Shown here one piece after another: positions 15,067 through 32,936 of a DNA stretch of 64,000 nt. The notes beneath the pieces were generated by a model. That model was not told where the DNA came from, made no database searches, and was given only the letters and a program-made list of their open reading frames with translations. The translations under genes were made by a program, and so were the position numbers. Every line of letters begins with the position of its first letter. The stretch's first letter is position 1. Source of the DNA: a bacterium (GTDB taxonomy: Bacteria > Vulcanimicrobiota > Vulcanimicrobiia > Vulcanimicrobiales > SCRA01); NCBI GenBank assembly GCA_004297985.1, contig SCRA01000044.1:14262-78261 (forward strand), read 5' to 3'.

Positions 15067-16077
15067 TCAGGGCACCAACACGGCCGCTCCGTCGATGCGA
15101 TCGGCTTTGAGAAGCTGCAGCGCCGTATTGGCCTCACGCAGGGGCAGGGGCCGTACACGCGGCCGAATCGCGATCTTGGCCGCAAGCTCCAGGAAGTCGC
15201 GAGCATCCGCTCGCGTCATATTGGTCACGCTGCGCAACTGGCGCTCTCCCCACAACAGCGTGTCGTAGTCGAACGAAGGTATGCGGTCGAGGTGGATGGC
15301 GTTGATCGCTGCCACGCCGCCTTTGCGCAGGGAGCGCAGCGCCGCGATGACCACGTCGCCCGAAGGGGCGAACGTCACGGCGCGGTCCAGCGCCACCGGT
15401 GGCACCTCCTGCGCCTCGCCCGCCCACACGGCCCCCAGCTCGCGCGCCAGGGCCCGGTGCGAGGCTCCGCGCGTCGAGACGTAAACTCGGCAGCCCCATG
15501 CCTGGAGTACCGGGAGCGCCAGATGCGCCGAGGCACCAAAGCCGAAGAGACCCACGCGCTCGCCGCGCTCGACCCCCGCCACGCGCAACGCACGGAAGCC
15601 TATGATTCCCGCGCACAGCAGTGGTGCCGCCTGCTCGTCGTCCAGCGCCGTGGGGAGCGGCACGGTGAATGAGGCGCGCGCCGTGGCGTAAGCAGCGTAG
15701 CCGCCATCGCGGTCGTACCCGGTGAAGATCGGCGCGTCGCAGAGGTTCTCGCGCCCGGCCCGGCACTGCGGGCACGTGCCGTCGACGCCGCCCAGCCAAG
15801 AGACGCCGACGCGCGCGCCCACGCTCGCGAAGGCACCGCTGCCCAGCGCCGCCACCTCGGCGACGATCTGATGCCCCGGCACGATGCTCGGCCGATGGGG
15901 CGTGAGCTCCCCTTCGACGATGTGCAGATCGGTGCGGCAGACGCCGCAGGCGCGCACCTTCAGGAGCACCTCGCCGGGCCCCGGCTCCGGCACCTCCCGT
16001 TCCTCGATGTGCAGCGGCGACTCACCAACCGCGTGCGGCTCATGGAGTACCGCCGCCAAGCCGCGCGCCGTGTTCAT
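15067..16077 (-). CDS. Zinc-dependent alcohol dehydrogenase family protein
   Basis: GVCRTDLH, PGHQIVAEV, a CPQCRAGRENLC structural-Zn loop and a GFGASAH Rossmann motif. Confidence 0.85.
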   Translation of the reverse strand: MNTARGLAAVLHEPHAVGESPLHIEEREVPEPGPGEVLLKVRACGVCRTDLHIVEGELTPHRPSIVPGHQIVAEVAALGSGAFASVGARVGVSWLGGVDGTCPQCRAGRENLCDAPIFTGYDRDGGYAAYATARASFTVPLPTALDDEQAAPLLCAGIIGFRALRVAGVERGERVGLFGFGASAHLALPVLQAWGCRVYVSTRGASHRALARELGAVWAGEAQEVPPVALDRAVTFAPSGDVVIAALRSLRKGGVAAINAIHLDRIPSFDYDTLLWGERQLRSVTNMTRADARDFLELAAKIAIRPRVRPLPLREANTALQLLKADRIDGAAVLVP

Positions 16078-19581: not shown

Positions 19582-20777
19582 GCCTTCAACCCCACGTATT
19601 GCCAGCCCAGTCGGGCGAGCACCGCCACCGCGCCGATGCCGCCTGCCGCGTAGACTACGGCCGCCATGCGCAACGCCTCCGGAGCGAACGCCGTCGAGAG
19701 CGCCGCACCCAGCGCACCGACTACCAGCAATGCCAGGCTCACATTCGATGCGCGCTCCGGCACGGCATTCCCTAGCGGCGGAAGTTTCGCGGTCGGATGC
19801 ATACGCCGAGCATACTCCCAGGCCAAGAAGCCTACCACCTTGTAGGAGTAGCCCAAGATCGAGAGCGAGAGCCAACCCAGGATCGCGAAGGCGACGGCGG
19901 CAGGCGCCTTGTCCGGATGCCAGGTGGCACCCAGAGTGCAGCCCGCTGCGAACAGTGCGAAGACCCAGGCTGCAGAGGCGTAGCGCAGGCTCACGTCGAT
20001 CTTCTTGCGCATGCGCTTTTTCAACGTGTGCAGGTGCACGACGACGGCGGCGATCACCGATACGATCGCTATGATCGACCCCGCACGCATGTACCAGATG
20101 CTGAGGAACACCAGTCCGCCTGCCACACCGGCGACGGCGATCGTCCACTGCGCGCTGCGCGTCCAACGTCCTTCGGTCGTATGCGCGAGCGAGAACATCG
20201 GCACGAAGCGATAGGAGACCGCGAAGACGAACGTGCTGGCGAAGGCGATGACCACGAGCGAGGCGTGCGTTGGCGCCAGGAGCAACGCGCCCACGGCGGC
20301 GCGTCCGTCCAAGGCTAGGGCCATCACTGCGCCGATGCCGGCCGCTGCGATGAAAGCCACGGTCGCCGCGATCACGGCGGCGCGCGTCTGTGCCTCGAGC
20401 GGGGCGGTACGGATGCGATTGATGGTCCAGATCCCCCACGCCGTCACGCCCACGAAGAGCAGCGGTCCCGCGATCGAGAAGAGGACATGGATACCGTGGA
20501 AGCCGCCCAGCAGGAGCACGAAGCCCAGCACCAACGGCGCCGAGAGGAGCATGACGGTGCGCGCCGGAGCCGCCTTGGCACCCGTGAGCACCGGAACGAG
20601 CTGGTTGGAGGCGCCCACGACCGCCATGACGATGAAAGCGGCGAACGCATGAAGCGTGAGCAGCGAGGCGCCGTTCACGATTAACGAGACACAGCCGCAA
20701 AGAAAAAACGCCAACGCAACGGCGAGGAGCGCCCCGCTCCCCGCCGGATCGCTGACGTTGTCACCCGACGAGATCAT
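19578..20777 (-). CDS. 12-TM integral membrane protein of unknown family (distant haem-copper-oxidase-like helix II string)
   Basis: 399 aa from the ATG at 20775-20777 (ATGA overlap with the upstream gene). About 12 hydrophobic helices. TM2 reads LHAFAAFIVMAVVGASNQLVPVLTGAKAAPAR. Confidence 0.7.
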   Translation of the reverse strand: MISSGDNVSDPAGSGALLAVALAFFLCGCVSLIVNGASLLTLHAFAAFIVMAVVGASNQLVPVLTGAKAAPARTVMLLSAPLVLGFVLLLGGFHGIHVLFSIAGPLLFVGVTAWGIWTINRIRTAPLEAQTRAAVIAATVAFIAAAGIGAVMALALDGRAAVGALLLAPTHASLVVIAFASTFVFAVSYRFVPMFSLAHTTEGRWTRSAQWTIAVAGVAGGLVFLSIWYMRAGSIIAIVSVIAAVVVHLHTLKKRMRKKIDVSLRYASAAWVFALFAAGCTLGATWHPDKAPAAVAFAILGWLSLSILGYSYKVVGFLAWEYARRMHPTAKLPPLGNAVPERASNVSLALLVVGALGAALSTAFAPEALRMAAVVYAAGGIGAVAVLARLGWQYVGLKA

Positions 20778-21001
20778 GACTTCGGCGCGAAGCGGATATG
20801 AAACTCTCCGTCTGTCACGCGCGTGCACTCGTGGCCAAAACCCTTACGATCCATCACGCGGTAGAGCGGGGTGGGTTCGAACGTATTGATGAGCAGGAAC
20901 GTCTGCCCCGGTTCGAGGGAATCGACCGCATCCATGATCGCCTGATACGGCTCCTCACCACGTTCGTGGTAGGGGCGTACATCGAGGACTCTCGGTTCCA
21001 C
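20774..21001 (-). CDS. DUF2249/TusA-like small protein (subtype B)
   Basis: 75 aa from the GTG at 20999-21001: VEPRVLDVRPYHERGEEPYQAIMDAVDSLEPGQTFLLINTFEPTPLY. Starts 5 nt after the previous stop. Confidence 0.62.
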   Translation of the reverse strand: MEPRVLDVRPYHERGEEPYQAIMDAVDSLEPGQTFLLINTFEPTPLYRVMDRKGFGHECTRVTDGEFHIRFAPKS

Positions 21002-21006
21002 GTCAG

Positions 21007-21255
21007 TTAGTCCGCAACGCGCTCGCCGAGTACAGCGGTCTTCTTGATGTCGACGAGCCAGATGTCGGGCCCCTTCTGCGCGTAATCCCACGAGAACGTG
21101 TTGGGGTAGTCGTGGTCGAGTTCGAAGCGCAGCGGGCGCGGGTCGTGGTCGTTGATGATGCGCAACGTGTCGCCCAGCGCGAGCGCCTCGTATTTCTCGA
21201 AGATGGTGGTGTGCTTGCGGCCCGGCGGAAGCGGGCGAACATCGAGTTCGATCAT
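21007..21255 (-). CDS. DUF2249 domain protein (subtype A)
   Basis: 82 aa from the ATG at 21253-21255: MIELDVRPLPPGRKHTTIFEKYEALALGDTLRIINDHDPRPLRFEL. The rest of track ORF 21007..21741 is Arg-rich shadow. Confidence 0.75.
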   Translation of the reverse strand: MIELDVRPLPPGRKHTTIFEKYEALALGDTLRIINDHDPRPLRFELDHDYPNTFSWDYAQKGPDIWLVDIKKTAVLGERVAD

Positions 21256-21302
21256 GCGGCCATCGTACGTCCGCCGGGGCGAGGGGGACAGCGACCCGAG
21301 TC

Positions 21303-22774: not shown

Positions 22775-23239
22775 TCATCCACCGCTTCGCACCCCATCCT
22801 CGAGCACCAGACGCAGCCGCTGGAGCAGACGGCGAACGGTAATCTCGGCCACGGCGTTCCCGCCGACTCTGTCGATCATCAGCCCCAAGGGGCCCAGCGG
22901 CGGGGTATAATCACCCAAAATTGCCAACTGGGTCCGCGTAGCCGAGAGCGGAACCACTTCGATCCAGCCGCGGAACTCCGGGAAGGCGCGGCTATCGGTG
23001 ACGCGCCATACAATCGGCATCACGGTGGCATAGGTACGCTGTTCGGGCTCGCCGAGGTTCATCAGCACCTTACGCGTGAAGCGCCCCAGCCGCGGCAGGT
23101 GCAGGTCCTCGAAGGGGACATCGAGCTCGTACCACATTCCCGGCTCACCGGAGTCTTCGGGAGCAAGGGCACGCCGAAGTCGATCCACGATCTGATCGGG
23201 CGCGCAGGCCACCTCGCTTTCGTAGAATACATGCGCCAT
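22775..23239 (-). CDS. Uncharacterised paralog family member X1 (~155 aa, SRPBCC-like by inference)
   Basis: Shares with X2-X4 the pattern FPxFxGxhxVxP...L.hxGxYxPPxGxxGxxxDxxxGxxIAxxTxRxxL (here FPEFRGWIEVVPLS...LGDYTPPLGPLGLMIDRVGGNAVAEITVRRLL). Confidence 0.6.
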   Translation of the reverse strand: MAHVFYESEVACAPDQIVDRLRRALAPEDSGEPGMWYELDVPFEDLHLPRLGRFTRKVLMNLGEPEQRTYATVMPIVWRVTDSRAFPEFRGWIEVVPLSATRTQLAILGDYTPPLGPLGLMIDRVGGNAVAEITVRRLLQRLRLVLEDGVRSGG

Positions 23240-23333
23240 TGTTTGAGCATCCCTCGCCTGCGAGAAATGTAGGGGAAGGACCGGTGAAGGGTCTGTTCAC
23301 GACGTCTTCTGACCCTGGAGCGATGATCTTCCC

Positions 23334-23819
23334 ATGAGCGAGATACGCGAGCGCGTCTTCGTCGCCTGCCCGCTGGGCCGTGCGCACCACTACTTGGCCC
23401 AGGTGCTGCCCACCGATACCTCCGCGAGCCGCCCTCTCGTTTTGCGCGTCTCCCTTCCGGGGGTGCGCGGCGACGCCAAGTTAGAGCAAGAAGTAACGGT
23501 GAACTGCTCGCCGCTGACGGACCCCCGTCACGAGAGCGAGGTCTGGCATCTCTCCTGGGCGCCGCGCCAGCCTGCAATCTACCCCTACTTCGACGGACGC
23601 ATCTCGATCAAAGGCGGCGAGGACTATAGCAGTTGCCGGCTGGTGCTCGAGGGGTCCTACGAGCCGCCTCTCGGCCTCCCGGGCCGTGCCTTCGACGCGG
23701 CGCTCGGGCGAAGGATCGCTGGAATCACCGCGCGCGAGTTGCTGCGCAGCATCGCGGAGCGCATGGAGGCATCGTTCCGCGCCGACGAGGCGCGCAAACA
23801 GGGCGAGCCCAGCCACTGA
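23334..23819 (+). CDS. Uncharacterised paralog family member X2
   Basis: YPYFDGRISIKGGEDYSSCRLVLEGSYEPPLGLPGRAFDAALGRRIAGITARELL. Same motif order as X1, X3 and X4; divergent from X1. Confidence 0.6.
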   Translation: MSEIRERVFVACPLGRAHHYLAQVLPTDTSASRPLVLRVSLPGVRGDAKLEQEVTVNCSPLTDPRHESEVWHLSWAPRQPAIYPYFDGRISIKGGEDYSSCRLVLEGSYEPPLGLPGRAFDAALGRRIAGITARELLRSIAERMEASFRADEARKQGEPSH

Positions 23820-23894
23820 ACGTGAACGTTCTCCAGCGCTTCCCAACCTCATCGCACCTATCGCGTACCATCGTCTGCGGGAGGTACGCTGACG

Positions 23895-24197
23895 ATGGGC
23901 TACCCGATCGTGATCTCGTTCCGCCTCTTGGATCGATCCGCATCCCTCGAGCGTCTCGTCCGCGATCAAGCCGGCCGGCTCGGTAAGCACTGTGGGTCGC
24001 TGGCGGCCTGTTGCGTCACCCTGGAGGCAGCGGGGCGGCGTCGGGCGAGCAGCGGCCTCTTCCACGTCCGAGTGGACGCGAGCATCGCGGACTCGGCGGA
24101 ACAGATCGAGGCCCACGCCCTGGATCGCGACCCCTATCTGGCGACCTTCGCGGCCTTCCGGATGGCCACGCATCGCCTGCGGATGCGCGCCGTCTGA
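23895..24197 (+). CDS. Small HPF/RaiA-like protein
   Basis: 100 aa. IVISFRLLDRSASLERLVRDQAGRLGKH...LFHVRVDASI resembles the N-terminal domain of the 12817-13422 protein. Confidence 0.5.
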   Translation: MGYPIVISFRLLDRSASLERLVRDQAGRLGKHCGSLAACCVTLEAAGRRRASSGLFHVRVDASIADSAEQIEAHALDRDPYLATFAAFRMATHRLRMRAV

Positions 24198-24204
24198 CGG
24201 CCTC

Positions 24205-25038
24205 TCAGAGCGTCGCCGCGGGGAGCTTGATGACGAAGGTCGTGCCGGACCCCTCGATCGACTCCACGCGCGCGTTACCGCCGATGCGCTTGAGCAGTTG
24301 ATCGACCACGGCTAACCCCAGGCCCGACCCCGGTGCTCGCCGCGTCGCCGCCTTTCCGCGGAAGCCCGCTTCGAAGACGTGCGGCAACTCCTCCGAACCG
24401 ATGCCCGGGCCCGAGTCGGAGATGACCACCGTCAACTCGCCGTCGGGGCGATCGCAGCGCATCTCCACCTTGCCCCCCGGCGGCGTGTAGCGTACGGCAT
24501 TGATCATCACGTTCCGAAGGATCTGCCCCACCCGAGTGGGATCGCCGCGGTACATCGTGCACGCGTCGTAGTGCATGCCGCAGGCGGTATAGGTAAGCTG
24601 GACGTCTTTCGAGGCCGCTAGCCCGTGCACCGAGGCCGCCTCGGCGGCGATCAGCGCACAGACGTTGAACGTGTCGATGCGTATGGGGAGCATTTCGGCC
24701 GACTCGCGCGGAGTGTGAGCCAAGTCGTGGGCCAACGCGCCGGCCGCTTCGATGGCCTCCTGGATGCCGCGCAGGCGCTCATCGCTTCGGTCGAGCACAC
24801 CGTCGAGCATGCCCTCCACATTGGCCTGCGCAATTGCCAGCGGATTGCCGATTTCGTGACGCAGTGTGGCGAGATGGCGCACGCGGGCCGCCTCCGTCCG
24901 TTGGAGCTGGTCGACCAACTGGAGCAGCCGCTGCACGACTTCCGCCTGCGTAGGATCCTCCAAACTCCGGAGCTCGCTCTCGGCATCGGCCCAGCGCCCC
25001 AGCATCGCACTGTCGATAGCGTGGAGGAGGCGTTCCAT
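24205..25038 (-). CDS. Soluble sensor histidine kinase (short helical N-terminus + HisKA + intact HATPase_c)
   Basis: H-box LRHEIGNPLAIAQ, N-box LRNVMINAVRYT, G1 DSGPGI, G2 GSGLGLAVV. No TM segment and no sensory domain. Confidence 0.85.
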   Translation of the reverse strand: MERLLHAIDSAMLGRWADAESELRSLEDPTQAEVVQRLLQLVDQLQRTEAARVRHLATLRHEIGNPLAIAQANVEGMLDGVLDRSDERLRGIQEAIEAAGALAHDLAHTPRESAEMLPIRIDTFNVCALIAAEAASVHGLAASKDVQLTYTACGMHYDACTMYRGDPTRVGQILRNVMINAVRYTPPGGKVEMRCDRPDGELTVVISDSGPGIGSEELPHVFEAGFRGKAATRRAPGSGLGLAVVDQLLKRIGGNARVESIEGSGTTFVIKLPAATL

Positions 25039-25042
25039 CGAT

Positions 25043-25735
25043 CTACTCTTTCCGCATCTTGTAGCCGACCCCGAAGACGGTGACCACGTAACTCGGGTTC
25101 TCTGGGTCGGGTTCGATCTTCTTCCTCAGGTTGTTGATGTGGCGATCGAGCGTTCGCTCGTAGATCGAGCCGTCATCGTGGAGTGCGTCGAGCAGCTGCG
25201 AGCGCGTCAGCACCTGCCCGGCGTTGGTGGCCAGAGCCACGACGATACGGAACTCTGAAGGCGTCAGGATAATGGTGCGATCGCCGATGCGCACTTCGTG
25301 CGCCTGCGCGTCGATGGTCAGATCGCGCACGCGCAGTGTCTTGATCGCGCGCTCCTCGCCGTGCTCGCCCGAGGAACGGCGCAGGACAGCGCGGACGCGC
25401 GCGACGACTTCGCGCGGCGAGAACGGCTTGGTGATGTAGTCGTCGGCACCCAACTCCAGGCCGACCACACGGTCGATCTCCTCGGAGCGCGCGGTGAGCA
25501 TGATCGTCGGAAGAGGCTCTTGCGCCGTCAGCGTGCGAAAGACGTCGAGCCCGCTGCCGTCGGGCAGGTTCAAGTCGAGGATGAGGAGATCGGGGCGCTG
25601 GCTCTCCGCCGTCGCCACGGCCTCCGCGGCCGTCGATGCCACCGTCGTGGCGTACCCCTCGCGCTCGAGATACTTGCTGAGAACCTCGCCGATCTGCGCT
25701 TCGTCGTCGACGAGAAGGATGCGTTGACCCGACAC
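25043..25735 (-). CDS. OmpR-family response regulator (module 1)
   Basis: GTG at 25733-25735 gives 230 aa: RILLVDDE...LLILDLNLPDGSG receiver plus a winged-helix end VFGVGYKMRKE. The upstream part of the track ORF overlaps the USP gene. Confidence 0.9.
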   Translation of the reverse strand: MSGQRILLVDDEAQIGEVLSKYLEREGYATTVASTAAEAVATAESQRPDLLILDLNLPDGSGLDVFRTLTAQEPLPTIMLTARSEEIDRVVGLELGADDYITKPFSPREVVARVRAVLRRSSGEHGEERAIKTLRVRDLTIDAQAHEVRIGDRTIILTPSEFRIVVALATNAGQVLTRSQLLDALHDDGSIYERTLDRHINNLRKKIEPDPENPSYVVTVFGVGYKMRKE

Positions 25736-25796
25736 GCCCCTTGCATTCGGCGCGGAATCACTCGCTTCCCCGCTGGTGTCGTTTCGCTGGTTGGCG

Positions 25797-26256
25797 CTAC
25801 GACGCGCGCGCGGCTGCGGCCGCAGTAGGGGCCACCAGCACGGGCACCGGCGCACGCCGCAGCACGCCCTCGGTCTTGCTGCCCAGGACGATCCGCGCGA
25901 TGCCGCCACGCCCATGGCTGCCCATGACGATGGCATCGGCCTCTTCGCGGCGCGCAAGGTCCAGGATGCTCTGTACGACCTCCCCCTTCGACAAGCTCGG
26001 TTCGCGAATCCAAGCCGGCGGCGCGGGCGCGCTCGGCGGCCGAGGCGAGGTACTGCTCGCCAAGCTCGCGTTGCGACTCTACGATGATCGTCGGATCCAT
26101 CGTCGTGGAGCCGCCGATGGCGATCAGCGGCACGATGTCGACGATGTGACAGAAGACGACGGTACCCCCCTGCGCGCGCGCGACATCCACGGCTAATCCC
26201 ACCGCGGCGCCGGAGGGCTCCGAGCCGTCGACCGGCACCAACAATTTCTTGAACAT
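25797..26256 (-). pseudogene. Universal stress protein gene interrupted by a +1 frameshift in a C5/G5 run
   Basis: The N-terminal USP half (MFKKLLVPVDGSEPS...TELVEG) is in one frame. The C-terminal half (EVVQSILDLARREEADAIVMGSHGRGGIARIVLGSKTEGVLRRAPVPVLV) is in another. The frames join if one C is removed from CCCCC at 25982-25986. Confidence 0.7.
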
Positions 26257-26283
26257 CGGCCTACCTCACCGTGTTCGGCAGCG

Positions 26284-27054
26284 TCAGATGGACGCGACGG
26301 GGAGCGGGATATGCAGCCGCAGCGACGAGCTCTCTACGGAGGCCACCCGCGCACGATCGTGGAGATGGCGCAGCAAGCGTGCCACGGCCGCTAGACTCAT
26401 CCGCCGCGTCGGGTGACCGGGGGAGCCTTCGTTGCGAACGGTGACAACGAGCATCCCGTCCGGCGGTTCGTGGCGCAGCTCGACCGTGCTTCCGGGCGGC
26501 GTCGAGCGCACGACGCCGGTAAGCACGTCGCGAAGCAGGCGGCGCGTGCGGGCCGGGTTGCCCCGATAGGCGGCGCAGACACCTGGCCCCATGCCGTCTC
26601 GCAGGAGGTGGATGTCCTTCGGGGCGGCGATGAGGGCGGCTGCCGCGAGCTCCTCGTCGATCATCGAGCAGAGCGTGAATGTCTCCAAGACGATGGTCGT
26701 GGGCGTTGCCGCGTCGCGATGTTCGCGTCCCGTCTCGGCTAAGATCGCACCCGCCACGCGCACAGCGTCATGCACCTTCTCCAGACTGACGTCGTCGCGC
26801 TCTACCACGCCGTCCAGCATCCCCTCGATCGTAGCCTGGGCGACCGCCAGCGTGTTACCGATCTCATGGCCGAGCCGCACGTGCTGTTCGCAGCGCGCCA
26901 GTTCCTCCTGCTCGAGCTGGCCGACCAGTTCCAGCAGGCGGGCCGCCAATGCCGCGGCTCGGGTATCGTCGACCGCCTTGAGCTGCACGACCGCCTCGCC
27001 CCAGGAGCCGAGCATGGTCTCGTCGATCGCATGAAGGATCTTCTCCACGCTCAC
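26284..27054 (-). CDS. Histidine-kinase paralog with degenerate ATP-binding domain (pseudokinase-like)
   Basis: H-box LGHEIGNTLAVAQ is retained. The N-box is LRDVLTGVVRST, G1 is NEGSPG and G2 is absent (RRMSLAAVA). GTG start overlaps the RR2 stop (GTGA). Confidence 0.72.
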   Translation of the reverse strand: MSVEKILHAIDETMLGSWGEAVVQLKAVDDTRAAALAARLLELVGQLEQEELARCEQHVRLGHEIGNTLAVAQATIEGMLDGVVERDDVSLEKVHDAVRVAGAILAETGREHRDAATPTTIVLETFTLCSMIDEELAAAALIAAPKDIHLLRDGMGPGVCAAYRGNPARTRRLLRDVLTGVVRSTPPGSTVELRHEPPDGMLVVTVRNEGSPGHPTRRMSLAAVARLLRHLHDRARVASVESSSLRLHIPLPVASI

Positions 27055-27740
27055 TCTCTCCGCAGCTTGTAGCCAACGCCGTATACGGTGAGGATGTACT
27101 GCGGACGCTCGACGTCGGTCTCGATCTTCCGTCGCAGATTGTTCACGTGCCGGTCCAGCGTGCGCTCGTAGATCGTGCCGGTGTCGTCGAGGATATCCAA
27201 CAGCTCCTCGCGCGTCAGCACCTGCCCGGCGTGGGCAAAGAACGCCTGCAGGATACGGAACTCGGCGGGGGTGACGGGGACGAGATCGCCGCCGACGCGT
27301 ACTTCGTGCGCCTGCGAATCGAGCATGAGATCTCCCACGTGCAGGGGCTCTTCGCGCCGCTCTTCCGGCTCCCGCGTGGTCCGGCGCAAGACGGCGCGCA
27401 CGCGTGCGGAGACTTCGCGCGGCGAGAACGGCTTGGTCACGTAGTCGTCGGCACCCATCTCCAACCCCACGATGCGGTCGATTTCGTCGGCACGCGCGGT
27501 GAGAATGATGGTGGGGATGCTTGCCTCGGCCTGCACGTCCCGGAAGACGTCCAGACCGCTGCCGTCCGGAAGCGTCAAGTCAAGGATCATCAAGTCGGGG
27601 CGCTCGCCTAGGGCAAGCTCCAGAGCGCGGGCCGCGGTCTCGGCCAGAGAGATCCTGAAGCCTTCCCGCTGGAGGTAAGCGGCTAGGACCTCGCCGATCC
27701 GCGGCTCGTCATCCGCGATCAGGATGTGCTTGCCGCTCAT
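27051..27740 (-). CDS. OmpR-family response regulator (module 2)
   Basis: ATG at 27738-27740: MSGKHILIADDE...LMILDLTLPDGSG...VYGVGYKLRRE. Confidence 0.9.
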   Translation of the reverse strand: MSGKHILIADDEPRIGEVLAAYLQREGFRISLAETAARALELALGERPDLMILDLTLPDGSGLDVFRDVQAEASIPTIILTARADEIDRIVGLEMGADDYVTKPFSPREVSARVRAVLRRTTREPEERREEPLHVGDLMLDSQAHEVRVGGDLVPVTPAEFRILQAFFAHAGQVLTREELLDILDDTGTIYERTLDRHVNNLRRKIETDVERPQYILTVYGVGYKLRRE

Positions 27741-28272
27741 GAGGCCGAGCATACGCGACGGGGCTTCCCGACTCGGGAAGAACTCGTGAGCGTTCGTACG
27801 CGAGGACTTCGGGGGTCTCGATCTCCCTGGCCACCTCGTCGGCCAGTCGTCCGAGGAAGGCACGCAGGCTCAAACGCGCCGCCGAACGCAGGAGCGTGGC
27901 ATCGGCGAGCGCCCCTAGCAGCCCTGCGGGAGGGGTGTAGCGCCCATCCAGCATCACATCGGCGCGATGCTCCGCCACCGGATGGACACGCAGTACCCCC
28001 GAGAACCTCGGGAAGAACCGCTCCGAGGCGCGCGCTTTGAGGCGCACGGGAATGCTTCGCTCGGTAGCGCGGATCGATGGCTCCCCCAACGTCAGCACGA
28101 TCGGAACACTGAGGTCGCCGACGCCGGGCAGATGAAGTGCCGCCAGGGGTACCGTCAGCCCCACGTCGCCGTGGCGAGAGGCCGGGGCGAGATGCTCCAG
28201 CACGCGCAGGAGCGCTACGGACACGACGTCCGGGTTGCTCAGCAGCGTCTCCGAAAGGATCACCTGAGGCAT
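27709..28272 (-). CDS. Uncharacterised paralog family member X3
   Basis: FPRFSGVLRVHPVAEHRADVMLDGRYTPPAGLLGALADATLLRSAARLSLRAFL. The 3' end overlaps the RR2 start by about 32 nt. Confidence 0.58.
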   Translation of the reverse strand: MPQVILSETLLSNPDVVSVALLRVLEHLAPASRHGDVGLTVPLAALHLPGVGDLSVPIVLTLGEPSIRATERSIPVRLKARASERFFPRFSGVLRVHPVAEHRADVMLDGRYTPPAGLLGALADATLLRSAARLSLRAFLGRLADEVAREIETPEVLAYERSRVLPESGSPVAYARPHERQAHPDRG

Positions 28273-28365
28273 ACGCCCATCCTAGTATCCTCGCCCAGCG
28301 AATCTAAGAAGAATTCGGGCCGTACCCTTCGCGAGGATTTCTCGCTCCGGCGTAATGATGCCGCC

Positions 28366-28797
28366 GTGAGACCGACCATCGTCGTTCCGCTCGCTACGCC
28401 GCTCGACCGCCGCATCGTCGAGGCCGTCATCGCGGACCTCATCGAGCGCCCGGTGCGTATCGTCTTACTTTGCGTACTGCGCCTACCGGAGCCCGCGGAG
28501 CTTCCCTACGACCAGCGCCTGCGCGGTCCATCGGCCGACGCACGCGAGTTGGAAGCCTTTCATCAGCTCCACACGCTGAGCATGCGTCTACGCGGTGCAG
28601 GGCGGTCGGTCACCACCGTGGTCTCGTGGGGACCGTTGCTCGAGACCGTGACGGCCGTCGCGCAGGGTTTCGACGCCGAGGTCCTGCTCGCCGAGCTCGC
28701 CGGCCCGCTGCCCTCCACCGATGCGCGCCATGTGCTGGCCGCAACCCCCAACTCGCGCCTGCTGCGCGTCATGGCGGCTACGTCGGCGGTCCCTTAA
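28366..28797 (+). CDS. Possible degenerate USP-like protein
   Basis: The GTG at 28366 gives 143 aa starting VRPTIVVPLATPLDRRIVEAVI (USP-like beta1), but the ATP-binding G-x2-G-x9-G-S/T motif was not recognised. The upstream part of the track ORF is antisense to X3. Confidence 0.35.
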   Translation: MRPTIVVPLATPLDRRIVEAVIADLIERPVRIVLLCVLRLPEPAELPYDQRLRGPSADARELEAFHQLHTLSMRLRGAGRSVTTVVSWGPLLETVTAVAQGFDAEVLLAELAGPLPSTDARHVLAATPNSRLLRVMAATSAVP

Positions 28798-29114
28798 CGC
28801 CACCCGTCTGCCTCTTTGAGCAGCGCCCCCATCGCCTGTACGGCCTCGAGCGTCTTGTGCAGGCTCTCTTCGTTGGCCGGTACGATCCCGTCGAGCATCC
28901 CTTCCAGCCCCGCCTGAGCCACTGAGAGCATATTACCGATCTCCGCGTGGATCATCCGATCGAAGCGCCGGTGAACCATCTCCCGCCGCTCCAGCTCATC
29001 GATCGCCGCACCGACGATATGCGGGATCTCCCCTTGGCTTCCGTCCAGGATCGAACGCGCATCATCGTAACGCCCCGTCGCCATGGCGTCGAGGATGCTC
29101 TCCAGATGATCCAT
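28794..29114 (-). CDS. Stand-alone HisKA/DHp-only protein (kinase lacking any ATPase domain)
   Basis: 106 aa from the ATG at 29112-29114, colinear with the N-terminal ~105 aa of the two kinases (IHAEIGNMLSVAQAGLEGMLDGIV). It stops where the ATPase domain would begin. Confidence 0.65.
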   Translation of the reverse strand: MDHLESILDAMATGRYDDARSILDGSQGEIPHIVGAAIDELERREMVHRRFDRMIHAEIGNMLSVAQAGLEGMLDGIVPANEESLHKTLEAVQAMGALLKEADGWR

Positions 29115-29121
29115 CTCTCGT

Positions 29122-29814
29122 CTAGACCTTTCGCATCTTGTAGCCAACGCCGAAGACGGTGACCACATACGTGGGATGAACGGGATCCGGCTCGATCTTT
29201 CGCCGCAGGTTACCGATGTGGCGATCGAGCGTGCGCTCGAAAATGGAGCCGTCATCCTGCAGGTGGTCGAGCAGTTGCACCCGCGTGAGAACCTGACCCA
29301 CATGCTCCGCCAGCGCCGTCAGGATACGGAACTCGGTTGGTGTGACGCCGACCACGCGGCCGTTGATGCGCACCTCGTGGGCGATGCGGTCGATAGCCAA
29401 GCCGCGCACGCGTAACGTCTCCATACCGCCGTCGACCGGCGGCGTGCGGGACGAGCGCCGAAGAATGGCGCGCGCCCGCGCAGTCACCTCGCGCGGGGAG
29501 AAGGGCTTGGTGACGTAGTCGTCGGCCCCCATCTCCAACCCCGCGATGCAGTCGATCTCCTCGGCCCGTGCCGTCAGCATGATGGTCGGGATACGCCGGC
29601 GCGCGGAAACGGCCCGGTAGACGTCGTAGCCGTTGCCGTCGGGAAGCGTGAGATCGAGGATCATCAGATCGGGCTCATCGCTCTCGGCGAGCGCGAGCGC
29701 TTCGGCCGCGGTGAGCGCGGTCTTCACCGCAAAACCCTCGCGTACCAGATACGCTTTGAGGAAGTCGACGATCCCAGGTTCGTCGTCCACCACGAGGATG
29801 GTCTCGCTCGCCAC
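29122..29814 (-). CDS. OmpR-family response regulator (module 3)
   Basis: 230 aa, GTG start: ILVVDDE...LMILDLTLPDGNG...VFGVGYKMRKV. High nucleotide similarity to RR1 at the 3' end. Confidence 0.9.
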   Translation of the reverse strand: MASETILVVDDEPGIVDFLKAYLVREGFAVKTALTAAEALALAESDEPDLMILDLTLPDGNGYDVYRAVSARRRIPTIMLTARAEEIDCIAGLEMGADDYVTKPFSPREVTARARAILRRSSRTPPVDGGMETLRVRGLAIDRIAHEVRINGRVVGVTPTEFRILTALAEHVGQVLTRVQLLDHLQDDGSIFERTLDRHIGNLRRKIEPDPVHPTYVVTVFGVGYKMRKV

Positions 29815-30181
29815 GGCGCGTGTCTTCTCCTACGCGGCGGCGATTTCATGCAATCGATGGGGCGAAGCCTCGCCTGCCATGCCATAGCCTGCTCCACGCT
29901 CCTTTGCGCCGCGTACCACGTCCTCATCCCGGGCCCCGGGATCGCGAAGCCGCGCAAGACGTCCGAGCTCGAATCTGCGAATGCATGGGGAACCCTGCGT
30001 CCGCTCAAGCGACCACAGTCACTCCGGGGCAACCTCTGCAAGACTATGATGGGCGCGTGTGCGTTTCCATCGACCTGCTGCGCGTGGAGGGGCCCCTAGC
30101 GCTTCGGCGCGCTCCCTCCACTCCGGCCCCCTCCCGGCGGCAGGCGCCGGTACCCCACGGCGGAAAACCACGCGTACAACC

Positions 30182-31186
30182 ATGAGCGAGAGAGCAACCA
30201 CCCCCAGCACCGCCGTCGAGGCCGGTACCATCCTCCTTGCCAACCCACGCGGCTTCTGTGCGGGCGTCGAGCGCGCCATCGATATCATCAATCGCCTGTT
30301 GGATATCCACGACGGGCCGATTTACGTTCGCAAGGAGATCGTCCACAACCGCGACGTCGTGCAACGCTTCCAGGCACGCGGCGTGGTCTTCGTGGAAGAC
30401 GTCGCCGAGGTGCCGCCGGACTCGCTGCTCGTCTTCAGCGCCCACGGCGTCTCTCCCGAAGTGCGCCGCAGCGCGCGCGAACGCGGCCTCCAAGTCATCG
30501 ATGCGACCTGTCCGCTGGTCTCCAAGGTTCACTTGGAAGCGATCAAGTTCGCCAACGAAGGCCTCTACGTGATCCTCGTCGGCCACAAGTACCATGACGA
30601 GGTGGCCGGGACGCTCGGCGAGATTCCCGGGCGAATCGGCCTGGTGGAGAACGTCGAACAGGCACGCGCCTGCGAGGTGCCCGACCCGCGGCGCGTCGCC
30701 GTCGTCACGCAGACGACGCTCAGCATCGACGACACGCGCGAGATCATCGAGACGCTCAAGGCACGATTCCCGGCGCTGGTTACCCCGGCTAGGGACGATA
30801 TCTGTTATGCCACGCAGAACCGCCAAGAGGCGGTCAAGGCTTTGGCTGACGAGACCGACCTCGTGCTGGTGGTCGGCTCGGAGAACAGCTCCAACTCCCA
30901 GCGTCTGTGCGAGAGCGCGAAGCAGACGGGCACTGCCGCCTACCTCATCGACCACCCTCATGCTATCGATCCTGCATGGGTCGTGGGGAAGCGCTCGATC
31001 GGCGTCACCGCCGGTGCCTCCTCCCCCGAGCACCTCGTGCAGAGTATCCTCGCACGCCTCCAAGAGCTCGGCACCTTCGAAGTGCGCGACTTCGGCAAAC
31101 GCGAGCCGGCGATCATCTTCACGCCGCCGCGCGAGCTGATGCGTCTGGAGGCGGAGGCCGCCGACGATTCGAGCCAGACGCGCTAG
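30182..31186 (+). CDS. ispH: 4-hydroxy-3-methylbut-2-enyl diphosphate reductase
   Basis: ATG at 30182: LANPRGFCAGVERAI, VHNRDVV, FSAHGVSP, DATCPLVSKVH, ICYATQNRQ and SSNSQRL motifs. Confidence 0.92.
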   Translation: MSERATTPSTAVEAGTILLANPRGFCAGVERAIDIINRLLDIHDGPIYVRKEIVHNRDVVQRFQARGVVFVEDVAEVPPDSLLVFSAHGVSPEVRRSARERGLQVIDATCPLVSKVHLEAIKFANEGLYVILVGHKYHDEVAGTLGEIPGRIGLVENVEQARACEVPDPRRVAVVTQTTLSIDDTREIIETLKARFPALVTPARDDICYATQNRQEAVKALADETDLVLVVGSENSSNSQRLCESAKQTGTAAYLIDHPHAIDPAWVVGKRSIGVTAGASSPEHLVQSILARLQELGTFEVRDFGKREPAIIFTPPRELMRLEAEAADDSSQTR

Positions 31187-31662
31187 GAGACGGCGCGCGC
31201 CTCGATCGCTCGCTTCAGCCCGCTAAGGAAGTGGCGGATCGTCGCCTCGGCGATACGGTGGCCGATAGCGGCGTCGAAGGCCGCCCCCACGGGACCCCCC
31301 GGCGGCCGATAGGCCCCGGCCACCGAGAGCTGGGAGCGCTGCTGCGCCAGAGGCGTCACTTCCAAGAATCCTTCGAAGGCGGGGAACCCGCCGTGTCCCG
31401 GAACCTCCCAACTAAGCGGGATGCGCAACTCGGTGAGCGAGCCGAACACTGGATGCGACTCGGGCTCTCCCAGCCTTACGTCGACTCGGCGAGAGAACTC
31501 TCCGACGTCGGGTAGCCCAAGCTCCTCGAACGGCACCTCCAGACGGTAGCGTCCCGAGCCCTCGCCGCCCGGCTGGGCCCCCAGCACCTCCGAAAGCAGC
31601 GCAGGCACGCGATCCGCCGCGCATCCCACTTCGTCCACGATCAAGACTTCTGTCATGTCCAT
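31183..31662 (-). CDS. Uncharacterised paralog family member X4
   Basis: FPAFEGFLEVTPLAQQRSQLSVAGAYRPPGGPVGAAFDAAIGHRIAEATIRHFL. The N-terminal half is also colinear with X1 (LEVPFEELGLPDVGEF versus LDVPFEDLHLPRLGRF). Confidence 0.6.
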   Translation of the reverse strand: MDMTEVLIVDEVGCAADRVPALLSEVLGAQPGGEGSGRYRLEVPFEELGLPDVGEFSRRVDVRLGEPESHPVFGSLTELRIPLSWEVPGHGGFPAFEGFLEVTPLAQQRSQLSVAGAYRPPGGPVGAAFDAAIGHRIAEATIRHFLSGLKRAIEARAVS

Positions 31663-31814
31663 CTCCCGTCAGGGCAGTGTCTCTCGCCCCCATCATGGCC
31701 GCTCGGTTGGCGGATCGCATGAGTCCGGTGGGAACCTGCGTTCACGGCTTCTTCACAACGGCATCGCCACGCATGTGTTATTCCCAGACTGCTCCCCCAT
31801 AGGGAACCGCAACG

Positions 31815-32312
31815 ATGAGCTTTCACACGATTCTCGTGCCGGTCGACGGCGAGTCGCCGTCGGATGCCGCTGTCTGGTATGCGCTCTCGATGGCCGAGGA
31901 GGAGCAGGCCTCGCTCATCTTCTGCCACGCGCAGGTTCCTGTTCCGGGATATCTACTCGACGAGCCGCTCCCCGCCGGCATGAAGATCGACTCGCAGGAA
32001 GCCGTGGCCTGGTGGTCGCGCCACGTCCTCGATCGCGCCCGTGGCCGCGCCGCCCAGCTCGGCTTCGATGCGCAAGTGCGCAGCTTGCGAGGCGATCCCG
32101 TCGCAGGCATCCTCGAGACGGCGCGCGCCGAGGGAGCCGATCTCATCGTGATGGGTACGCACGGCAGGCACGGGCCGGCCCGCGCTCTGCTCGGCAGCAC
32201 GACCGAGGGGGTTCTCCGCCGCAGCAACCTGCCCGTGCTGGTCCTGCCCTGCGCCACCCCCGAATGCCTCTCACGCCACGTCGATGCCCGTGACCCCGGG
32301 GCTCTGGCCTAG
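31815..32312 (+). CDS. Universal stress protein
   Basis: ILVPVDGESPSDAA...DLIVMGTHGRHGPARALLGSTTEGVLRRSNLPVLVLP. Confidence 0.87.
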   Translation: MSFHTILVPVDGESPSDAAVWYALSMAEEEQASLIFCHAQVPVPGYLLDEPLPAGMKIDSQEAVAWWSRHVLDRARGRAAQLGFDAQVRSLRGDPVAGILETARAEGADLIVMGTHGRHGPARALLGSTTEGVLRRSNLPVLVLPCATPECLSRHVDARDPGALA

Positions 32313-32936
32313 GGCGGCCAGCCGCTCCCAGAGGTCACCGTCACCGCGCACGCCGAGGTCGTAGGAGACCGAGCTCACGAGCCGCTCGCCGACGCGCTCA
32401 AAGGCGATGCACGAGACCAGACGCACCTTCGCGAAGTGACCAGCCAGCTGCTCGCGCACCGCCTCCGCGGTCGTCTCGCCCACGTCGAATCGCACGATCA
32501 CCTGAAGGCGATGCTCGGCGTGCACGAGCGCGGCCACGCGCCAGTCCGCGATGCCGAGCGCGATCACCGTCGACACCGTGACCACGACCGCCGTCAGCAG
32601 AGCCGCCGGCGTCCCAACCCCGGCGGAGACGCCCACCGCCGCCGCCACCCAGATGCTCGCGGCCGTCGTGAGTCCGGAGGCCGTCAGGCCCTGCCGAACG
32701 ATGGCCCCTGCGCCGAGAAATCCCACACCGGTGGCGACGCCGGCGATGATGCGATCGAATTGGAGGCCGTAGGCCGACTCGGCGAAGGCGCAAGCGGCCA
32801 GCGAGACCAGCATGTGGGTACGCAACCCCGCCGGCCGGTGGACCAGCTCGCGCTGCATGCCGATCGCCGCCCCGAGCACGGCGGCCACGAGGGTCCTCAG
32901 CACGATCGCCGCGAGCAGAGCTCCATCCATCGTCAT
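32271..32936 (-). CDS. mgtC: MgtC/SapB family membrane protein
   Basis: AAVLGAAIGMQRELVHRPAGLRTHMLVSLAACAF is the MgtC signature. ACT-like C-terminus. Start at the ATG at 32934-32936. Confidence 0.85.
   Translation of the reverse strand: MTMDGALLAAIVLRTLVAAVLGAAIGMQRELVHRPAGLRTHMLVSLAACAFAESAYGLQFDRIIAGVATGVGFLGAGAIVRQGLTASGLTTAASIWVAAAVGVSAGVGTPAALLTAVVVTVSTVIALGIADWRVAALVHAEHRLQVIVRFDVGETTAEAVREQLAGHFAKVRLVSCIAFERVGERLVSSVSYDLGVRGDGDLWERLAALGQSPGVTGIDVA

Follow-up and report, generated by a model that had tools for sequence, protein, structure and literature searches.

Three paralogous OmpR-type response regulators with complete, lid-less and DHp-only kinase-like partners in an Eremiobacterota locus

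A locus of an uncultured soil bacterium (Eremiobacterota), lying within the 64-kb stretch of DNA analysed here (the window), carries three paralogous modules, each consisting of an OmpR/PhoB-family response regulator (RR1–RR3) and a small soluble protein with the DHp domain of a histidine kinase (HK1–HK3). The six open reading frames (ORFs) lie on the minus strand (Table 1), and the DHp proteins form a graded series: HK1 is a complete kinase, HK2 keeps the phospho-acceptor histidine next to a pseudo-catalytic domain that has lost its ATP lid, and HK3 is a DHp-only protein in which the histidine itself is missing. We are highly confident in the descriptive and evolutionary part of this account, namely that a single module of a response regulator (RR) and a soluble kinase underwent an ancient triplication, that the resulting series is maintained by selection, and that such erosion extends across the family. 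For the function of the series, we see about an even chance that HK1 is the only kinase and that HK2 and HK3 are dead as kinases and serve their own regulators as phosphatases or binding modulators.

Intact regulators with graded kinase-like partners

HK1 matches the Pfam families HisKA and HATPase_c with 27.6 and 97.7 bits, and each of its catalytic boxes can be located, including an F-box (Table 1). Besides HK1 and RR1–RR3, no further kinases or receiver domains were found in the window, and HK1 is, judging by its motifs, the sole ATP-competent kinase found there.

The HK2 protein more likely starts at the GTG at 27048, which gives a length of 254 aa that matches its orthologs. Its H-box is retained. 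The N-box region reads LRDVLTGVVRST, with the Mg-binding Asn replaced by Gly, and the segments NEGSPG-HPTRR-MSL stand where G1, F and G2 are expected, the G1 Asp being changed to Asn. Alignments place a deletion of about 22 residues in the ATP lid, spanning G1, F and G2, and the match to HATPase_c, at 15 bits, falls short of the cut-off of 26.4. The AlphaFold2 model predicted for HK2 (mean pLDDT 89.4) comprises two short N-terminal helices, a DHp hairpin (residues 29–78 and 86–113) and a compact alpha/beta domain. In a Foldseek search of the Protein Data Bank (PDB), this model matched class-I kinase cores with E-values of 1e-11 to 1e-8, including HK853, CusS, KinB and CpxA; the pseudokinases DivL and RetS were also among the matches. 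On the strength of the model, HK2 is predicted to be a folded kinase-like protein without an ATP lid.

HK3 ends 4–5 residues past DHp helix 2 and lacks a catalytic domain; tblastn searches with HK1 and HK2 detected no catalytic-domain remnant downstream of it in any frame. It reads I-H-A-E-I-G-N around the H-box site, and its orthologs read GAEIVN, RAEIVN and RSEIGN, with Ala, Ala and Ser at the histidine position and a variable residue before it. No conserved histidine near this site appears in the alignment of HK3 and its orthologs. Lacking a phospho-acceptor histidine, HK3 cannot serve in phosphotransfer.

Pairwise identity among the three DHp proteins is 38–43%, and their DHp core, EIGNxLAxAQAxxEGMLDG, is near-identical. 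The Asn four residues after the histidine, which is the phosphatase residue of the H-E/D-x-x-T/N motif, does not vary among HK1–HK3 and their orthologs. No membrane segments were found in HK1–HK3, the highest 19-residue Kyte–Doolittle mean being at most 1.42, and none of the three matched the Pfam families HPTransfase or SPOB_a/SPOB_ab at E≤0.1. The family is remote from solved structures: the best, and only, PDB sequence hit of its DHp profile was the AdeS DHp domain (E=0.0099).

The regulators themselves are intact. All three match Response_reg and Trans_reg_C above the Pfam cut-offs, they share 63–66% pairwise protein identity, and D10, D11, D54, T81 and K103 are invariant in their alignment. 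The best NCBIfam similarities of RR1 are to MtrA, CreB, PhoB and BaeR, none of them at its cut-off, and since none of RR1–RR3 reaches an NCBIfam equivalog cut-off, a specific named regulator is not assignable.

This arrangement had been anticipated in an earlier reading of the same DNA (the original prediction), and ORFs, Pfam matches and alignments agree with it on the three modules with graded partners beside intact paralogous regulators. Its complete kinase with H, N, G1 and G2 boxes is borne out, as is its account of HK2 as a protein that keeps the H-box, has a degenerate N-box and NEGSPG and lacks G2. The same holds for the near-equal length of the regulators, their DD...D residues, and the lack of transmembrane segments in the kinase-like proteins. 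HK3 had been described as N-terminal helices plus DHp, which is correct; the replacement of its phospho-acceptor histidine by Ala had been missed.

Conservation and purifying selection

The whole arrangement recurs gene for gene in the related loci L001/L002 and L003, where the order is RR230, DHp106, the convergent 143-aa gene, the 187-aa gene, RR229, the 254/256-aa protein, USP151, RR230 and HK277 (numbers are lengths in aa; USP, universal stress protein). L006 also carries three modules, and L060 and L009 carry part of the arrangement. Gene order and gene lengths are thus shared with at least four other assemblies of Candidatus Eremiobacterota, the phylum in which a scan of GTDB species genomes placed the lineage. 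The HK3 orthologs (P0002–P0004) are 104–106 aa long and 75–82% identical, and the HK2 orthologs are 254–256 aa long with 76–86% identity. Orthologs come from a small sample of three to five lineages: a word-indexed homolog search provided four proteins each for HK2 and HK3, and the exhaustive profile search described below was needed to go further. JGI metagenomes contributed no additional HK3 orthologs, and a second metagenome scan with the whole-family alignment as query contributed one useful locus, L060.

The original prediction had named an assembly or frameshift artefact as a finding that would overturn it. A homopolymer frameshift does exist nearby, in a USP gene, and could suggest that the HK3 truncation and the HK2 lid deletion are likewise assembly or sequencing errors of this contig. 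This attempt at refutation fails, as the orthologs have the same lengths and are under purifying selection. The same 104–106-aa HK3 and 254–256-aa HK2 are encoded in independent NCBI, ENA and Logan assemblies, out-of-frame catalytic-domain sequence is absent, and a conserved convergent gene abuts HK3. An artefact is refuted by the independent orthologs, and we give it virtually no credence.

Pairwise ratios of non-synonymous to synonymous substitution (dN/dS) against the orthologs were 0.01–0.035 for RR1, 0.07–0.10 for RR2 and 0.06–0.10 for RR3. The DHp proteins had ratios of about 0.1 (HK1), about 0.22 (HK2) and 0.23–0.41 (HK3). Within HK2, the pseudo-catalytic part has a dN/dS of 0.24–0.29, compared with 0.06–0.10 for the catalytic domain of HK1; within HK3, constraint is stronger in the DHp half (0.18) than in the N-terminal half (0.23–0.50). 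A binomial test on synonymous versus non-synonymous differences rejected neutrality for HK3 (P=8e-5 against L001, 1e-5 against L003, and 0.03 for the closest pair, L001/L003) and for the HK2 pseudo-catalytic domain (P=2e-6). HK2 and HK3 are thus held by purifying selection and do not appear to be dead genes. For the regulators, a dN/dS of at most 0.10 together with the invariance of all catalytic residues argues that RR1–RR3 are still operated by phosphorylation.

Two relatives show how far module 3 can be reduced. In L006, the HK3 ortholog is cut to a 62-aa ORF (P0048, 4567–4755) that retains helix 2 and the latter half of helix 1 of the DHp domain; the N-terminal helices and the ExxN residues are gone, and the adjoining RR3 is intact and 90% identical. 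In L060 (494–7375), a metagenome relative with an HK1 73% identical to that of the window, only modules 2 and 1 are present, and cytochrome oxidase subunit genes occupy the position of module 3. These cases lend real support to a decay of HK3, and one could suppose that HK3, and perhaps HK2, are slowly decaying, functionless remnants that persist owing to their shortness and their co-transcription with an essential regulator. The stepwise relaxation of constraint from HK1 through HK2 to HK3 and the frameshifted USP gene in the window would fit such decay. Against it stand open frames of the same length across several lineages that differ by a synonymous divergence (dS) of 0.3–0.5, the rejection of neutrality for both proteins, a DHp core that is almost invariant across the HK3 orthologs, and a pseudo-catalytic domain predicted to fold with high confidence. 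We therefore regard functionless decay as very unlikely.

Old paralogs, probably eroded from a complete ancestor

The paralogous RR genes share 65–69% nucleotide identity at a dS of 0.9–1.3; their duplication is therefore old, and a recent duplication or gene conversion among them is ruled out. The similarity between the 3' ends of RR1 and RR3, which had been read as a sign of local duplication, does exist in the form of one 60-nt window at 85% identity in the conserved DNA-binding region. Over their whole length the two genes are 68% identical with a dS of 1.3, and the similarity is best attributed to protein conservation, not to recent duplication. Likewise, the proposed graded series of kinase, degenerate paralog and DHp-only protein is confirmed, and its members are not successive stages of a recent duplication (dS about 1); HK1–HK3 are old paralogs that eroded independently.

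The RR tree supports the ortholog groups of RR1, RR2 and RR3 at 100, 89 and 100%, respectively, without resolving the order of the deeper branches. The RR1 and RR2 groups are already separate in L009, and the groups are also separate in L060. Checking relatives for intact versions, as the original prediction had proposed, was rewarding: L007 and L008, with about 52% identity to HK1, carry a single complete module of one RR followed by an HK1-like gene that aligns along the full length of HK1. Together with the grouping of HK2 and HK3 with complete kinases, this makes loss from a complete ancestor the likely direction of change.

HK3 is nearest (38%) to HK1 and to P0007, the lid-less protein of L009, and falls near the clade of complete and HK2-type proteins, on a long branch with weak bootstrap. 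A derivation of HK3 from the histidine-containing DHp-only clade of Tyrphobacter-like genomes was considered and is unsupported.

The partial loci offer further variants. L009 (687–3735) encodes an RR, P0007 at the HK2 position with the N-box Asn retained, a USP gene and an RR1 ortholog. This RR1 has an HPF-like gene abutting it and no kinase behind it, and on the upstream side the locus ends with the contig. In L060, the HK2 ortholog P0008 is lid-less and full-length and has Gln in place of the histidine, with EIGN kept. Histidine-less forms of more than 100 residues have arisen at least twice, in the HK3 group and in P0008.

A family in which catalytic domains are commonly eroded or missing

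A family profile made of the N-terminal helices and the DHp domain was searched against 1.84 billion representative proteins; 584 of them matched at E≤1e-3, and 55 of these reached E≤1e-10. Small, soluble proteins make up the close hits; they share the N-terminal helices, which start at residue 1–10, and carry the DHp motif RHEIGNALSIAQANxEGMxDGV. Among the close representatives, a complete lid occurs in five clusters, a lid-less domain with histidine in about 27, many of them with the N-box Asn, and a DHp-only architecture with histidine (93–120 aa) in about 17. Some short hits may be fragments. For L050 and L051, the DHp-only genes were verified as complete, with a stop codon and neighbours downstream. 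The histidine is absent only from the HK3 group, P0008 and the L006 remnant.

Lid-less and DHp-only forms outnumber complete kinases in this family, of which the present locus is one local case. In a neighbour-joining tree of the DHp domains, the complete, lid-less and DHp-only forms are interspersed, with modest bootstrap; HK1 groups with the HK2-type clade, and HK3 lies beside complete kinases and not with the histidine-containing DHp-only clades. Loss of the catalytic domain looks recurrent in this tree.

In two Tyrphobacter-like loci (L050, 7996–10318; L051, 9321–11944), genes for a PAS kinase and for a double-receiver protein stand back to back with a histidine-containing DHp-only gene. 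L051 has an additional single receiver. Downstream come a START-like gene, cox genes and the gene of an OmpR-type regulator. The layout of these loci looks like that of a multi-step phosphorelay.

Possible roles of the kinase-dead partners

If HK2 and HK3 are kinase-dead phosphatases or binding modulators, HK1 would be the only ATP-driven source of phosphoryl groups at the locus, located in the same apparent operon as module 2. HK2 and HK3, predicted to be unable to autophosphorylate, would use the conserved helix 1 of the DHp domain to dock onto the regulator to which each is translationally coupled, and would act as negative modulators, either by dephosphorylating RR~P with the Asn of H-E-x-x-N or by holding the RR in a complex. 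RR2 and RR3 would receive phosphate by cross-talk from HK1, from a kinase elsewhere in the genome or from acetyl phosphate, and the adjacent START-fold proteins would be candidate ligand sensors for the sensor-less DHp proteins.

In HisKA kinases, the Thr/Asn of H-E/D-x-x-T/N is essential to phosphatase activity alone (PMC3510030), and mutants of the histidine lose phosphotransfer and keep phosphatase activity (PMC7005713). The ExxN residues are kept in all five histidine-less cluster representatives of more than 100 residues (HK3, three ortholog clusters and P0008). The His+4 Asn is retained even in P0008, where the histidine is Gln, and is lost only in the 62-aa remnant of L006. We favour a phosphatase or modulator role because this Asn is a phosphatase-only residue and is retained, together with the Glu, in all histidine-less forms of more than 100 residues. 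The RR-facing DHp positions H+7, H+8, H+12 and H+13 read A-I-N-V, A-V-T-I or S-V-G-L, depending on the paralog, and are constant inside each ortholog group, which fits a maintained, insulated docking of each protein to its regulator. A precedent is PhyT, whose ATPase domain is degenerate and which transfers phosphate as well as restraining PhyR in a complex (PMC5898713).

On the regulator side, the helix-1 positions that match the rewiring mutations of the HK853–RR468 pair agree between RR1 and RR2 at three of four (Q/R, I, V, Y), and RR3 (G, I, F, Y) differs at two. The mutated residues were taken from the titles of PDB entries among the Foldseek matches, and the residue-by-residue mapping relies on what we take to be the RR468 sequence. 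Given the agreement at three of four positions, HK1 could plausibly also phosphorylate RR2.

Several observations weigh against a phosphatase or modulator role. Nearly all lid-less and DHp-only family members keep the histidine, which points to phospho-histidine chemistry, that is, transfer, for histidine-containing forms such as HK2. In EnvZ and HK853, phosphatase activity is stimulated by the catalytic domain when nucleotide is bound to it (PMC7005713), so that a DHp domain alone may be a poor phosphatase, and a predicted phosphatase role of PhyT was not borne out in vitro (PMC5898713). The RR1 of L009 has no HK1, and a kinase in cis is therefore not required. HK3 is under the most relaxed constraint of the three DHp proteins, and its 62-aa form in L006 and the absence of module 3 from its position in L060 mean that it is dispensable in some lineages.

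The main rival takes HK2 for a phosphotransferase of the ChpT/Spo0B type, whose histidine would accept phosphate from a receiver (RR1~P or an unlinked relay) and pass it to RR2, the lid-less domain serving only for docking and HK3 being a separate case. Alignment, model and fold search all describe HK2 as a DHp domain with histidine plus a Bergerat-like domain without an ATP lid, features that HK3 lacks on both counts. The retention of the histidine in about 27 lid-less and about 17 DHp-only clusters points the same way, as does the reassignment of PhyT from phosphatase to phosphotransferase. A further argument is the relay-like setting of L050, L051 and L057, where a histidine-containing DHp-only gene stands beside receiver genes (and a PAS kinase in L050 and L051), followed by an OmpR-type regulator. 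However, neither a stand-alone receiver nor a hybrid kinase was found in the 64-kb window, P0008 is full-length with ExxN despite having Gln for the histidine, no Pfam ChpT/Spo0B family is matched at E≤0.1, and HK3 is left unexplained. We regard a ChpT-like HK2 as possible and, on balance, rather doubtful.

Alternatively, HK2 and HK3 could act on the kinase and not on the regulators, through DHp heterodimers with HK1 or with each other; HK1 would then phosphorylate the HK2 histidine in trans or be poisoned in the manner of RetS and GacS. The nearly identical DHp cores of the three paralogs, the apparent operon shared by HK2 and HK1, and the presence of RetS among the structural matches to the HK2 model would suit heterodimers. 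However, each DHp gene is tightly coupled to its own RR and not to HK1, lid-less proteins occur in L009 and L058 without a complete kinase nearby, and the differences between the paralogs fall at RR-facing positions. Such heterodimers seem unlikely to us.

START-fold neighbours and a possible role of acetyl phosphate

Four mutual paralogs of 154–187 aa (S154, S159, S161 and S187) surround the modules (Table 1). The START/SRPBCC (Bet v 1-like) helix-grip fold consists of an antiparallel sheet wrapped around a long C-terminal helix. An AlphaFold2 model of S161 (pLDDT 79) gave ZhuI, TTHA0849 and CoxG as best Foldseek matches (TM-score about 0.55), and its top matches are all START/SRPBCC or related helix-grip lipid-binding proteins (TM-score about 0.45–0.55, E-values of 3e-4 to 1e-2). 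Neither NCBIfam nor a PDB sequence search provided a named family for these proteins, and their Pfam membership is weak or absent; it was the predicted fold that placed them.

The link to DHp proteins is physical in several loci. The 3' end of S187 overlaps the start of RR2 by 32 nt, an overlap kept in L001–L003, and S187 adjoins RR2 in L060. A START-like gene follows the DHp-only gene after 2 nt in L050 and L051. On the 2.96-Mb contig of L057 (8001–8798), a START-like domain and a histidine-containing DHp-only domain are fused in one 265-aa protein, P0059. The START-fold proteins may be the best candidate ligand sensors, acting in trans, for the sensor-less DHp proteins, with S187 as the candidate for module 2.

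In L001–L003, phosphoketolase and acetate kinase genes lie between the S154 and the ferredoxin-reductase-like genes (L001, 16410–19869); the window is without them (junction at 22775–22778). Phosphoketolase, acetate kinase and phosphotransacetylase genes flank the related RR/DHp loci in L050, L051 and L057, and cytochrome oxidase genes occur at related loci in L050–L052 and L057.

A more speculative design would dispense largely with sensor kinases: acetyl phosphate, made by the products of the flanking phosphoketolase, phosphotransacetylase and acetate kinase genes, would charge the regulators, and the START-gated lid-less and DHp-only proteins would form the regulated step, by dephosphorylation or by histidine-mediated shuffling. 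We consider this design improbable; if true, complete kinases of the HK1 type would be the ancestral exception in the family, not the rule.

Locus layout and flanking genes

RR1 and HK1 are separated by 4 nt, RR3 and HK3 by 7 nt, and RR2 and HK2 overlap. S187, RR2, HK2, the USP gene, RR1 and HK1 lie on one strand with short gaps, which suggests a single operon. Scans of 23200–32400 for sigma-70 promoter and intrinsic terminator consensus sequences gave nothing above chance, and a search for k-mers common to the intergenic regions found no convincing shared box except two GTTCAC direct-repeat sites.

These sites, GTTCAC-N5-xTTC repeats at 23296–23311 and 31741–31756, lie in divergent promoters beside START-like genes and are the only two in the window, with 0.2 expected by chance. 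The first is kept in L001–L003 at about 15874–15895. At remoter kinase loci in Armatimonadota and other phyla, 11-bp tandem TTCAC arrays stand upstream of the kinase match. We take these repeats to resemble the PHO-box-type sites of PhoB/OmpR-family regulators.

The 143-aa USP-like gene that converges on HK3 fills the space in which the HK3 catalytic domain would sit; it is kept at 143 aa with the same 4-nt overlap in L001–L003 and is present in L060. The USP gene between modules 2 and 1 is whole (151 aa) in L001 and L003. Alignment to these intact orthologs shows that in the window it is broken by a +1 frameshift, an extra G on the coding strand in the C-run at 25982–25986 of the plus strand, which is either a true frameshift or a sequencing error.

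Other neighbours include two adjacent DUF2249 genes (67 and 86 bits, 20774–21300), a 100-aa HPF/S30AE-like gene convergent with HK1 (23895–24197; 22.7 bits against a cut-off of 23.7), USP genes, a ferredoxin-reductase-like gene, ispH, mgtC, a P-type ATPase gene and cbb3 oxidase genes. The setting is one of stress, respiration and fermentation, to which the DUF2249 and HPF-like genes add a flavour of stress and dormancy.

Table 1. Features of the three modules and their neighbours (positions in the window)
Feature	Position	Strand	Description	Evidence
RR1	25043..25735	-	OmpR/PhoB-family, 230 aa; D54 at 25574-25576	Pfam
RR2	27051..27740	-	OmpR/PhoB-family, 229 aa; D54 at 27579-27581	Pfam, alignment
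RR3	29122..29814	-	OmpR/PhoB-family, 230 aa; phospho-Asp D54 at 29653-29655	Pfam Response_reg 1.4e-26, Trans_reg_C 4.3e-21
HK1	24205..25038	-	Soluble HisKA-type histidine kinase, 277 aa	Pfam HisKA and HATPase_c 7e-28
HK1 H-box	24844-24861		RHEIGN	
HK1 N-box	24484-24519		LRNVMINAVRYT	
HK1 G1	24400-24417		DSGPGI	
HK1 F-box	24355-24375		FEAGFRG	
HK1 G2	24313-24330		GSGLGL	
HK2	26284..27054	-	DHp with histidine and lid-less pseudo-catalytic domain, 254-256 aa	Pfam, alignments
HK2 H-box	26854-26871		GHEIGN, histidine kept	
HK2 lid region	26392-26433		NEGSPGHPTRRMSL, replaces G1, F and G2	
HK3	28794..29114	-	N-terminal helices and DHp, 106 aa	Alignments; no Pfam match
HK3 H-box site	28932-28949		HAEIGN, Ala at canonical histidine position, ExxN residues retained	
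USP-like gene	28366..28797	+	143 aa; convergent with HK3, 4-nt overlap with HK3 stop codon	Weak Pfam Usp match (0.0023)
USP gene	25797..26256	-	Encodes a universal stress protein; located between modules 2 and 1	Two ORFs, corresponding to two Usp halves
S161	23334..23819	+	START/SRPBCC-fold	42% identical to C-terminal half of P0059, blastp 1e-36
S154	22775..23239	-	START/SRPBCC-like, divergent from S161	blastp to S159 4e-36, to S187 3e-17
S187	27709..28272	-	START/SRPBCC-like, 187 aa; paralog of S154, S159 and S161	Weak Polyketide_cyc2 match
S159	31183..31662	-	START/SRPBCC-like, upstream of module 3 past ispH	blastp

Significance and comparison with known systems

Bifunctional histidine kinases are hard to dissect, with kinase, phosphotransfer and phosphatase activities on one surface. 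The locus amounts to a natural experiment, in which the partners differ by having a full kinase, no ATP binding, or neither catalytic domain nor histidine, each beside an intact regulator, and it suits the study of what a histidine kinase does after its kinase activity is lost. The series provides natural substrates for asking whether a DHp hairpin with ExxN is enough for specific dephosphorylation or sequestration. It also bears on whether a single kinase can supply several paralogous regulators when their own partners do no more than drain them, and on how often evolution discards the catalytic domain. The family belongs to the Eremiobacterota (WPS-2), a phylum known almost wholly from metagenomes. 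Kinase-dead forms predominate in the family, which is linked to START-fold proteins and to genes for acetyl-phosphate metabolism, respiration and stress.

Incomplete and split kinases are already known, as are ChpT, Spo0B, PhyT, DivL and RetS. In the limited open-access literature that we searched, we found no description of a conserved, selected, histidine-less DHp-only protein as cognate partner of an intact OmpR-type regulator, of histidine-less DHp-only, lid-less and complete paralogs together at one locus, or of an Eremiobacterota family of small soluble DHp proteins that are mostly kinase-dead and START-linked.

HK2 and most of the family resemble ChpT of Caulobacter and Spo0B of Bacillus in combining a DHp hairpin with histidine and a Bergerat-like domain that has no working lid and is unable to support autophosphorylation; ChpT has its ATP lid replaced and does not bind ATP (PMC3433190). 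In contrast to these proteins, HK2 is the product of a gene placed 3' of its OmpR-type regulator partner, as a classical kinase gene would be, and has no Pfam ChpT/Spo0B membership. The window also has no upstream receiver or hybrid kinase, P0008 is histidine-less, and HK3 has neither the histidine nor a pseudo-catalytic domain.

An intact DHp motif next to a degenerate ATPase domain is likewise found in PhyT (formerly PhyP), which belongs to the general stress response of alphaproteobacteria; PhyT is a phosphotransferase that also restrains PhyR by complex formation (PMC5898713). It differs from HK2 in being membrane-anchored and of the HWE/HisKA_2 type (HRxxN), with PhyR as its target, whereas the proteins described here are soluble and HisKA-like (HExxN) with OmpR-type partners.

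DivL (PMC4211667) and RetS are comparable as kinase-fold proteins whose output runs via protein–protein interaction and not autophosphorylation. Unlike HK1–HK3, they are large multi-domain membrane or hybrid proteins with a catalytic-like domain and do not form a graded paralog set beside paralogous regulators. A study entitled [quoted passage not shown] reportedly ascribes phosphatase function to the isolated DHp domain (domain A) of EnvZ. HK3 looks like a natural DHp-only, histidine-less and Asn-containing version of this domain; this and the phosphatase studies cited above concern engineered fragments or point mutants of bifunctional kinases, whereas HK3 is a conserved natural gene.

Finally, the split kinase HK1/HK2–TcrA of Mycobacterium tuberculosis and the incomplete histidine kinases, which have been catalogued (PMC9321153; bioRxiv 10.64898/2026.02.27.708494), resemble the present locus in placing H-box and ATP-binding functions on separate or incomplete polypeptides. 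The locus described here differs from the mycobacterial system, since its HK1 is complete with its own histidine, its HK2 has a dead catalytic domain and its HK3 is histidine-less; the three proteins are not complementary halves of a split kinase.

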